Notes under the pieces: generated by a model | What the model saw: the letters and a program-made list of their open reading frames with translations, nothing else | Told to the model about the DNA's origin: nothing | Databases searched by the model: none | Sequence record: PQ221054 | Direction: 5' to 3' (one strand) | DNA length: 44,051 bases | Source of the DNA: Escherichia phage Rao1 | Part shown: positions 29,935-31,454 of the stretch, piece by piece | Position numbering within the stretch: position 1 is the stretch's first letter | Layout of the letters: each line of letters starts with the position of its first letter | Translations under genes and position numbers: made by a program

Positions 29935-29962
29935 TAAAGCCCCTTTCGGGGGCTTTTTTATT
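29935..29962. terminator. Rho-independent terminator (probably bidirectional)
   Basis: AAAGCCCC-TTTC-GGGGGCTTTTTT between convergent genes. Confidence 0.7.
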
Positions 29963-31454
29963 TGCTAATCAATGTTGACACAATAGCTTTAAGTTCCTCC
30001 ACTTCCCTTTCAAGTTTAGTCACCCTATCATCCGTCTCTCGCCCAACCTGAACAAGCAATCCAGTAATGCCGGAATAGTCAACCATGTAGCTCCTATTCT
30101 CCAGTTGCAGTGGAGTTCCATCAGGGTTTACACCGTGAGCATCTATGTATTCAAAAGTACCACTAAACGCTTCCGGTATAGCATCTTGAACCTCCTGTGC
30201 GATTACGCCAGCATAAGGCATTCCATTAGATTTCAAGGTATAGGTGTAACCGTTCATCATGCGTAACTTTACAGTCGCGTCAGAGATAACTTCAATGTTA
30301 TCTTTCTTTTCTCTGTCAGATGTTTGGTTAAATGCCGTAGCATTAATAGGCCCATTCACTTCGAAATACCTTCCTCCATCAGCGTTTTGTTGTGCGTACC
30401 AAAGAAAGCCATTATCTAGCTTGCACTCAACTACAGAAGGTCTTCCGTTGTTATTGCCCCAAGCCATGATGGTGGCATTTCTATTAGGCTCATGCACTTC
30501 TAACGAGAATGACTTTACATTTCGCGTGGCGCTAATAACAGAACCAAACTCAGGCTGTATTGTTTTGAATGACTCAACGCTTAAAAACCTTTGCCACGAG
30601 CTCCATTTCCATGTGCCAGAATCCAAGTTGTACTGTCTTCTGTATGTTATGCCTTGTTTGTTGGAAGGAATATAATCTTGCGTAGTATGATTGACACCAT
30701 TCGCTATAGCGCTGTAAACAAAAAGAGTGCCAGCAGTTTTTTCAGGATATCCATTGGCAACGGTCGCATTATCTGTGTTGTTTTGGTAATAAATGCCAGT
30801 ATTTTTGACTCCACTAATCGAGTCAATGTTAACGCCTGACGGAATTGGAGACGAGGAGAGATAAGGAACCATAAGGTTATCCCTTGCTTTTTTCTTATCC
30901 TTCAGATCTGCCAGGTTCTGGCTTTTAGCCAGAAATAGACCTGGGTTAATGCTGTCAGCGTAACCTGCCGCTTCTTGCGCTGATGCCGCTGCTGCGTCTT
31001 TATCAGAAGCTACCTGATTTGCATCATTTGATACCTGCGCTCCAATATTAACAATCTCACCATATTGCGTATTTACTTGATTTACATCACTTGCAAATTT
31101 ATCCTGATTAAAATCCTTAAAAACATCAACCGCTGTTGCAACCTCAGATTCTCTCGATTGGTAGAAGCGCAGAGTTTCCGCAACATCCTGTGCCAATCCC
31201 TGAACGGTAATCCCATCATGAGCTAGAATCGCGTAACCAGTACCAGCAGGAACAGTTTCAGAATTTGGGTTGTATACATTAATCTGCGTATCGCTGATAA
31301 TTTCAGAGATAGTGTAAATCTTCACTGGTTCAGTTTTGAACACAATAGTGGCGCCTACACGAATGAGAGTAAGCGGAGCCATCCAGTTGGTTCCAGTACC
31401 AGTTACGGTACCGTTGGCTGCCAGGCTTGCTGTGCCAGAATCATAAATTGCCAT
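29958..31454 (-). CDS. Tail fibre protein with C-terminal intramolecular chaperone (peptidase S74-like) domain
   Basis: C-terminal SDREKKDNIE...AGVIAQEVQDAIPEAF...LEREVEELK pattern typical of auto-cleaving tail fibre/tailspike chaperone domains; N-terminal Gly/Thr-rich fibre region. Confidence 0.7.
   Translation of the reverse strand: MAIYDSGTASLAANGTVTGTGTNWMAPLTLIRVGATIVFKTEPVKIYTISEIISDTQINVYNPNSETVPAGTGYAILAHDGITVQGLAQDVAETLRFYQSRESEVATAVDVFKDFNQDKFASDVNQVNTQYGEIVNIGAQVSNDANQVASDKDAAAASAQEAAGYADSINPGLFLAKSQNLADLKDKKKARDNLMVPYLSSSPIPSGVNIDSISGVKNTGIYYQNNTDNATVANGYPEKTAGTLFVYSAIANGVNHTTQDYIPSNKQGITYRRQYNLDSGTWKWSSWQRFLSVESFKTIQPEFGSVISATRNVKSFSLEVHEPNRNATIMAWGNNNGRPSVVECKLDNGFLWYAQQNADGGRYFEVNGPINATAFNQTSDREKKDNIEVISDATVKLRMMNGYTYTLKSNGMPYAGVIAQEVQDAIPEAFSGTFEYIDAHGVNPDGTPLQLENRSYMVDYSGITGLLVQVGRETDDRVTKLEREVEELKAIVSTLISK

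Follow-up and report, generated by a model that had tools for sequence, protein, structure and literature searches.

A lateral tail fibre gene with a Peptidase_S74 chaperone domain at the family's normal locus in Escherichia phage Rao1

We analysed the sequence of Escherichia phage Rao1 (record PQ221054, 44,051 nucleotides (nt); this whole stretch is called the window below) with respect to one gene on its minus strand, an open reading frame (ORF) with an ATG start at positions 29958..31454 that encodes a precursor of 498 amino acids (aa). This gene is very probably the lateral (side) tail fibre gene of a T1-family siphophage of the Braunvirinae/Christensenvirus type, located at the normal locus of the family, whose product would remove its own C-terminal S74 chaperone and whose distal part is swapped between phages. 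It is a homologue of T1 gp26/FibB and Rtp rtp50. Earlier publications already cover the locus, its conserved position, the mosaicism and the S74-bearing alleles, and GenBank contains annotated proteins that are nearly identical; as a discovery the gene thus carries little weight. Its practical value lies in two results of use for host-range engineering in T1-like phages: the exact limits of recombination, from codon ~112-148 to the stop codon, and the predicted processing site, Thr378/Ser379.

Results and Discussion

The fibre gene occupies a fixed site in the Drexlerviridae

A preliminary description made from the letters of the sequence had reported a 498-aa fibre encoded on the minus strand between the ssb and primase genes, opposite in orientation to the other tail genes and about 5 kb away from them. 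All of this was confirmed by the ORF positions and by matches to PHROG families. The ORF contains the motif SDREKKDNIE, whose serine is Ser379, and its product matched more than 25 PHROG 'tail fiber' families. The gpJ-like tip gene ends at 24706 on the other strand, 5.25 kb off, and the genes of the receptor-binding protein (RBP) and Cor end at about 26110. The N-terminal (residues 1-163) and C-terminal (residues 324-496) parts of the fibre match different PHROG tail-fibre families, which was a first sign of mosaicism.

At the nucleotide level the region shares 96.4% identity with Escherichia phage CY1_Cui-2023 (CY1) and 79-86% with Rtp, IME253 and several phages of the BASEL collection; its identity to phage TR2 is 88% and distributed as a mosaic. 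CY1 and TR2, which belong to the genus Christensenvirus (Drexlerviridae, Braunvirinae), were both isolated from fermentation broth. The fibre protein itself is 98% identical (aa) to the CY1 'tail fiber protein' WDS61344.1 and to the TR2 'lateral tail protein' UXQ90362.1.

The position of the gene among recombination and replication genes had been taken as a displacement, and this interpretation did not survive comparison with relatives. To the left of the fibre, on the plus strand, lie genes for a PDDEXK/RecE-like exonuclease, an ERF recombinase and SSB; to the right, beyond the primase and a regulator, a helicase gene is again on the plus strand. The layout recE-erf-ssb on one strand, fibre-primase-regulator converging on it, then helicase, is kept in six relatives, namely T1, Rtp, IME347, Bas01 (AugustePiccard), CY1 and TR2, with the fibre in the same site and orientation, so that the position is a fixed family trait. 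The gene thus stands at the Drexlerviridae lateral-fibre locus, next to ssb, with the recombination module on one side and the primase/helicase module on the other. The counterparts are ST26 (gp26/FibB) in T1, where bidirectional terminators are annotated next to ST27, gp59 in IME347 and bas01_0038 in Bas01. In a Klebsiella Webervirus the fibre gene directly follows ssb on the same strand and is convergent with gpJ; compared with the six other relatives, this means that the adjacency of fibre and ssb is family-wide and that orientation alone varies. The site is the ancestral location, fixed across the Drexlerviridae, of the lateral tail fibre gene.

This conclusion agrees with published work. 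The locus has been described for T1 gp26, Rtp rtp50 and Bas01 (Roberts 2004; Wietzorrek 2006; Maffei 2021), and Maffei et al. 2021 (S1C Fig) presented it as the Drexlerviridae lateral tail fibre locus, in which only the 5' end of the gene is conserved. The KanT1 paper (2026) repeated the point and found lateral-fibre trees incongruent with the genome tree, and the annotation of Rtp rtp50 confines its likeness to T1 gp26 to the N-terminal region. T1 gp26, Rtp rtp50 and the Bas01 fibre share with the window the position and orientation, the N-terminal ~110-150 residues, an upstream terminator, an extended −10 element and a palindrome; their distal parts are unlike that of the window, being a beta-helix in Rtp and an HK97/HK022-like fibre in T1. 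With 498 aa the window fibre is among the shortest alleles, the other Drexlerviridae alleles having 611-960 aa.

The C-terminus is an S74 chaperone domain

The S74-type C-terminal signature, also proposed at the outset, was confirmed by a domain search. The Pfam family PF13884 matched residues 379-429 with 43.2 bits (E-value 5e-11) against a gathering cutoff of 22 bits, and the match spans positions 1-56 of the 58 of the profile. Together with a conserved catalytic dyad and with matches at the profile and fold levels, this assigns residues 379-498 (29961..30320, minus strand) to a Peptidase_S74 intramolecular chaperone domain.

The dyad consists of Ser379 (codon 30318-30320) and, at Ser+5, the predicted catalytic Lys384 (codon 30303-30305), and both residues are conserved in all S74-bearing homologues of our alignment. 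The same spacing is found in T5 pb1 (Ser1264/Lys1269), where the preceding threonine is also present (Thr1263), and the motif together with this likeness places the predicted scissile bond between Thr378 and Ser379. In T5 pb1 the S1264A mutation blocks autoproteolysis, and the Thr-Ser...Lys(+5) geometry is catalytic. The motif of the window reads SDREKK, as against SDRxLK in most relatives, the lysine at Ser+4 being unusual; the aligned motif in S16 gp37 (6F45) is SDRRIK. If the bond is cut as the sequence predicts, the products would be a mature fibre of 378 aa and a released chaperone of 120 aa.

When a profile of the homologues was compared with the PDB, it matched the S16 gp37 chaperone (6F45, 3.7e-9) and the ICA domain of MYRF (7DC3, 1.3e-7). 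A monomer model made with AlphaFold2 from a 37-sequence alignment (mean predicted local distance difference test, pLDDT, 76; predicted template modelling score, pTM, 0.31) shows beta hairpins at residues 402-458 followed by a helix at 460-497, that is, the mixed alpha/beta arrangement ending in a long C-terminal helix of the S74 fold. The best Foldseek match of the model in the PDB was 3GW6, the intramolecular chaperone of the K1F endosialidase and founder of the S74 family (E 2.6e-4, prob 1.00, template modelling (TM) score 0.16-0.29).

Two known systems are close in this respect. T5 pb1 (4UW7/4UW8) likewise ends in an S74 chaperone, with a Ser-Lys(+5) dyad and a scissile Thr-Ser bond, as predicted here, and serves a siphophage as an accessory side fibre that binds O-antigen; it differs in its length of 1396 aa and in its tip, where a 'bullet' domain takes the place of a knob. 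The K1F endosialidase shares the fold of the S74 domain and the Ser-Lys(+5) dyad but is an enzyme, with a sequence identity of ~14%.

A predicted anchor, shaft and knob precede the chaperone

The N-terminal beta domain, residues ~1-82 (31209..31454, minus strand; strands at 3-80 in the model), is assigned by homology as the 'anchor' that attaches the fibre to the virion. Residues 1-162 match the Klebsiella phage depolymerases 7VYV, 7VZ3 and 7LZJ with E-values of 4e-34 (phmmer) and 8e-81 (profile), and in the Depo32 paper the homologous region is a conserved anchor domain at the N-terminus plus a helical bundle. Over residues 1-120 the fibre is 76-81% identical (aa) to those of other Drexlerviridae, and the 25 invariant columns of the alignment all fall within residues 19-102. 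The Webervirus proteins Depo32 (7VYV/7VZ3) and DpK2 (7LZJ) thus have the anchor and helical bundle (residues 1-~185) in common with the window, as well as a gene that adjoins ssb. They differ in carrying a beta-helix depolymerase body instead of knob and S74 domain, and the Webervirus gene is co-oriented with ssb.

Next comes a long alpha-helical segment, residues 84-168 (30951..31205, minus strand), modelled at low pLDDT as helices 84-113 and 117-168, which presumably forms a trimeric coiled-coil shaft. It is followed by a beta 'knob' domain at residues ~200-297 (30564..30857, minus strand; pLDDT 82-90), presumably the receptor (glycan)-binding part. Foldseek matched the knob to that of the R1 pyocin fibre (6CL5; E 1.6e-3, prob 1.00, at a TM-score of only 0.15-0.19), and a search of NCBIfam gave no match for the fibre; homologues of the fibre bear the NCBI name 'pyocin knob domain-containing S74 family peptidase'. 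Just before the predicted cleavage site lies a small beta domain, residues ~328-366 (30357..30473, minus strand; strands 328-366 in the model). It contains the conserved residues D360 and R/K363 of the alignment, and by analogy the D360/R363 region may be the counterpart of Asp1239/Arg1250 of T5 pb1.

The distal part of the gene is the exchanged unit

The gene had been proposed to be a separately exchangeable host-range cassette. Exchange is indeed supported, and had been published before, but the exchanged unit is the distal part and not the whole gene. In BLASTN comparisons with Rtp, nucleotide homology reaches 29962, in the fibre stop codon, is then lost, and is found again from 31117 (codon ~112) onwards; for Bas01 the corresponding limits are 29952 and 31011 (codon ~148). 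Both upstream breakpoints fall in the helical segment, and the exchanged unit therefore corresponds to the distal two-thirds to three-quarters, approximately, of the gene (codon ~112-148 to the stop codon). In a search of 5.8 billion proteins, the N-terminal module (~70-77% identity) was found joined to C-termini of the S74, Beta_helix, Pectate_lyase_3, PF27114, PF21882 and PF25670 types.

Of the sequenced isolates, only CY1 and TR2 have the distal 290 aa at 98% identity. The next-best matches were the side fibres of the lambdoid phages mEp554 and mEp013 (47-49%), encoded in the canonical place after J, followed by the C-termini of rV5-like lateral fibres (~41% to the distal module). In side fibres of E. 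coli prophages and lambdoid phages (mEp554 gp113, mEp013) and in the C-termini of rV5-like (Vequintavirus) lateral fibres (AlexBoehm bas56_0026), the distal knob and S74 region (residues ~209-498) is homologous at 41-57% identity, whereas these fibres of 841-1270 aa have other N-terminal attachment and shaft regions and are encoded either after J or in the large rV5 fibre cluster.

A reading in which the whole gene is a recently displaced, self-contained mobile host-range cassette, exchanged as a unit, is highly improbable. Terminators do bracket the gene, which has its own promoter-like element (see below), and a block of ~2.3 kb with ssb and fibre is ~100% identical to TR2 between flanks of 57-85%. 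Yet the gene keeps its position and orientation in the six relatives named above, which refutes displacement, and homology runs on through the first 112-148 codons, so that the breakpoints are intragenic. Moreover, the TR2 block also takes in the erf 3' end along with ssb, and an identity of 99.7% returns beyond the primase, a pattern that fits divergence of the primase segment better than mobility of the fibre; an integrase, a transposase and flanking repeats are all absent.

The comparison with TR2 over window positions 28741-32500 and beyond was as follows: the erf 5' part is 83-85% identical, 29191-31440 (erf 3' end, ssb and fibre) ~100%, the primase 57-73%, and 32517-36000 99.7%. The window lacks the HNH endonuclease genes that in TR2 are inserted between recE and erf, as well as between primase and regulator.

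Apart from differences in the fibre, this block is 99-100% identical to TR2. Compared with the CY1/TR2 allele, 11-12 codons of the fibre are changed, every one of them at residues 174-309 (window 30528-30935), with 10-11 nonsynonymous changes and 1 synonymous change. The aa changes lie within residues 174-286, seven of them in the knob domain and the other four at residues 174-192. The substitutions, with the window residue first, are F174L, K185E, D186N, K189T, D192N, (G207D), K217E, D228A, K239E, N255R and S286A, and the window allele has four extra lysines. This imbalance suggests selection on the knob region, with, by our estimate, too few changes for significance by themselves. A diversity-generating retroelement was considered as the origin of the cluster and rejected: no reverse transcriptase is encoded among the ten genes scanned around the locus, and the substitutions are of several types, seemingly not confined to one base. 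A gene-conversion patch from another allele was also considered and is not supported, the window-specific residues not being shared by the nearest other alleles (P0002 and P0003).

The receptor module downstream of gpJ differs from that of the nearest relatives

Relative to CY1 and TR2, the fibre is not the swapped host-range unit that had been supposed. These phages carry the same fibre allele (98% aa identity; 10-11 aa differences), of the same length and at the same locus, together with a different RBP module downstream of gpJ. In the window this module comprises two plus-strand ORFs (24748-25119 and 25116-25913) without Pfam matches, and a Cor-like lipoprotein ORF on the minus strand (25925-26110), recognised from its sequence, MKKLIVITAMILAGC... 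It is 99.9% identical (nt) to that of IME253, ZL19, phiA2-1 and TR3; phiA2-1 was isolated on a delta-fhuA host, and IME253 is FepA-dependent according to the BASEL paper (Maffei 2021). CY1 and TR2 carry in its place an rtp44/rtp45-type module on the other strand. The module being shared with IME253 and the others but not with CY1 and TR2, the terminal-receptor module was swapped in this lineage; host-range modules are thus exchanged here at the locus downstream of gpJ, not at the fibre, and it is in the terminal-receptor module rather than in the fibre that the window phage differs from CY1 and TR2.

The fibre gene looks like an insulated transcription unit

Between the convergent ssb and fibre genes lies a bidirectional rho-independent terminator (29936..29956, both strands), AAAGCCCC-TTTC-GGGGGCTTT, with a T-run on either strand; at this site bidirectional terminators are annotated in T1. 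At the other end of the gene, a terminator hairpin on the minus strand (31524..31541) reaches into the primase stop codon (31540-31542), of which it takes in the final two bases. It is kept in Rtp, Bas01, T1 and IME347 and is predicted from sequence to insulate the fibre gene from the primase transcript.

Downstream of this hairpin we found the extended −10 promoter-like element TGgTAGAAT (31498..31506, minus strand), which matches the consensus and is conserved but lacks a −35 sequence, and a Shine-Dalgarno sequence, GGAG (31463..31466, minus strand), 8 nt before the ATG. The terminator and the TGnTAnnAT motif are invariant in 6 Drexlerviridae from 3 lineages, including T1, IME347 and Webervirus. 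In T1 the arrangement is TTGCAA-17-TGaTAAAAT, and both T1 and IME347 have a −35-like hexamer at 17 nt. From its succession of terminator, extended −10 element, Shine-Dalgarno sequence, ORF and bidirectional terminator, the fibre gene looks like its own insulated transcription unit.

A model for fibre maturation and the alternatives to it

Starting from the domain content, catalytic residues, synteny, recombination breakpoints and flanking terminators described above, we propose a scheme in which cleavage, virion attachment, glycan ligand and promoter activity are inferred. Three 498-aa precursor chains would associate, and the S74 chaperone (residues 379-498) would trimerise and template the folding of the preceding beta domains. 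Once a correct trimer has formed, Ser379, activated by Lys384, would cut the Thr378-Ser379 bond and the 120-aa chaperone would leave. The mature 378-aa fibre would then dock to the tail via its anchor (residues ~1-80) and project the coiled-coil shaft (~84-168), so that the knob domain or domains (residues ~200-366) may bind a surface glycan, lipopolysaccharide (LPS) or O-antigen, reversibly, before the gpJ tip and the downstream RBP engage the terminal protein receptor. Recombination in the conserved 5' region on one side and the conserved terminator/ssb flank on the other would swap the distal part from phage to phage.

Several published results bear on this scheme. Maffei 2021 proposed an O-antigen role for the lateral fibres of this locus. 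In Shigella phage SH6, ORF54 was detected in purified virions by LC-MS/MS (17 peptides, 42% coverage; Hamdi 2017). From its description ORF54 resembles the window fibre, being a second fibre encoded on the minus strand, with a Peptidase_S74 domain, a T1-like N-terminus and a C-terminus acquired from other phages; it differs in its length of 559 aa and its HK578-like distal part. The authors of the TLS paper propose that a 78-kDa virion structural protein is Gp55, which HHpred relates to the L-shaped fibre of T5.

A number of points weigh against the scheme. The structure model is that of a monomer, its pTM is 0.31, and residues 80-200 and 298-327 are predicted with low confidence. Foldseek gave low TM-scores (0.15-0.29), which can be attributed to the comparison of a monomer model with intertwined trimers. 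A single-sequence phmmer search of the PDB with residues 207-498 gave only marginal matches (E 0.016-0.03), and an NCBIfam scan of the fibre gave no match. A scan with the sigma-70 consensus found no minus-strand promoter upstream of the fibre gene, since a −35 sequence is lacking, and we call the promoter from the conservation of TGnTAnnAT alone. By the BASEL authors' own account, the O-antigen role of the Drexlerviridae lateral fibres is a proposal without direct demonstration (Maffei 2021), and for the fibre of this phage cleavage, virion incorporation and ligand are all inferred.

Other roles for the protein were weighed against that of an accessory, self-processing fibre. It is unlikely to be the essential primary receptor-binding protein that sets the host range: although Rtp infection requires LPS, some BASEL Drexlerviridae plate poorly on LPS-core mutants, and the window-specific aa changes cluster in the knob region, the phage has a complete gpJ tip together with an RBP/Cor module nearly identical to that of the FepA-dependent IME253, and in the T5/BASEL framework lateral fibres are dispensable on rough strains. 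We consider it very unlikely that the S74 domain is a degenerate relic which remains uncleaved as the tip of the fibre. The unusual lysine at Ser+4 would fit such a relic; on the other hand, the full-length Pfam match lies well over the gathering threshold, Ser379, Asp380 and Lys384 are intact and conserved, and the C-terminal helix and the fold match to 3GW6 are retained. Finally, it is highly improbable that the protein is an enzyme of the tailspike or depolymerase kind and not a fibre for binding: the same N-terminal anchor does bear beta-helix depolymerases in Webervirus and in many homologues, but a Pfam scan of the fibre revealed no beta-helix, pectate-lyase or other enzymatic domain, just ~200 residues separate shaft and chaperone, and the model shows small knob domains there.

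A family repeat overlaps the presumed start of transcription

The fibre gene also carries a copy of a T1-family repeat, a 16-nt palindromic element (TAGCA-N5-TGCTA with one mismatch) found by a repeat scan at 31476..31491. Its orientation is inverted with respect to the gene, and its place is 6 nt downstream of the −10 element, at about +1 to +16. At the equivalent site the palindrome is perfect in T1 (34903-34917), Rtp, Bas01 and IME347, and its placement is conserved in all four. In T1, the annotated ORF ST25 ('hypothetical protein', minus strand, 34791-34934) overlaps the 5' end of ST26 and covers the conserved promoter/palindrome region, and for this reason it may be a spurious ORF call.

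The window has 20 matches to ATAGCACnAATTGCTA with up to 3 mismatches where 2.06 +/- 1.34 are expected, and 0 of 100 shuffled sequences reached 20; T1 has 10 perfect copies of TAGCA-N5-TGCTA against 0.06 expected. The strong copies (up to 2 mismatches) are all intergenic, except one that overlaps the last bases of an ORF. Copies of the aATAGCACnnnTTGnTAaa type are found in the window at 1463-1478, 2380-2395, 4036-4051, 13486-13501, 26285-26300 (minus strand), 27077-27092 (minus strand), 28744-28759, at the fibre gene itself (31476-31491), and at 32999-33014, 35490-35505, 37830-37845, 39040-39055, 43086-43101 (minus strand) and 43896-43911 (minus strand).

A TATAAT-like hexamer stands exactly 22 nt downstream of the repeat in 33 copies of the window and T1, with T in 23, A in 27, T in 22, A in 17, A in 19 and T in 27 of the 33 at the successive positions. 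With this constant spacing, the centre of the palindrome falls near −42. TTGnTA, within the repeat, was considered as a −35 sequence and rejected, a constant spacer of 22 nt to the hexamer being outside the sigma-70 range. The 45 nt after the repeat tend to fold (mean z −2.6, against −0.03 for random window segments) with stem sequences that vary between copies; the hexamer is usually inside or just after this hairpin, and a CATCGAAAC-like leader follows in many copies. As some of the hairpins that follow the repeat are annotated as terminators in T1, the hexamer may in part be a terminator tail. The copy at the fibre gene is without such a hexamer, the corresponding sequence being GGCAAT in the window and TACCTG in T1.

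A full-text literature search for the palindrome sequence returned nothing relevant; the repeat is described under its consensus in the TLS paper, whose passages on repeats report 18 intergenic copies, consensus aaATAGCACnnnTTGnTAAAA, mention 'similar repeats' in T1 and Rtp and list the function as an open question. The fixed 22-nt spacing and the hairpin are not mentioned in those passages, and the observations made here bear on the question of function that they raise.

On the sequence alone, the repeat would occupy an activator-type position, near −42, at ~30 early/middle genes of the window and T1, and a repressor-type position at the fibre gene. A tentative and rather doubtful proposal is that the fibre gene is a separately timed unit under the control of a factor recognising the 21-nt repeat (TAGCA-N5-TGCTA). 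If this were true, a single factor could activate the replication genes around the fibre gene and at the same time repress the structural gene embedded among them, or act the other way round, and the presence of a late-type gene in an early/middle region would be explained. The helix-turn-helix (HTH) regulator encoded two genes upstream of the fibre is the obvious candidate for the repeat binder.

Neighbouring genes and other observations

A gene scan around the fibre locus placed this HTH regulator at 32504-32986 on the minus strand. The primase gene (31540-32463, minus strand) was identified through phrog_510 (6e-89) and the Pfam family Zn_Ribbon_Prim, and ssb (29508-29927, plus strand) through phrog_44 (1e-27), which was the sole match of its product, a Pfam scan of that product finding none. 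The C-terminus of SSB has a long Q-rich tract (QQQQKQQQQQQQQRQPQPQQQ) followed by an acidic tip, ...EADNIPF, which we take to resemble the DDDIPF C-terminal tip of bacterial SSB.

The searches with the fibre also returned MG065674, MG065662, MG065672, MG065677 and other records of ~140 kb named 'Campylobacter phage A140/A141/A142/A13b', whose lateral-fibre C-terminus is that of rV5-like coliphages. They score identically to RudolfGeigy and ECML-10, and their genome sizes are rV5-like; given this C-terminus and these sizes, the Campylobacter jejuni host labels look doubtful. Lastly, AT-rich repeats, (TA)n followed by (TTA)n, occur at 127-201 and 27214-27264 of the window, both intergenic and with 80% mutual identity.

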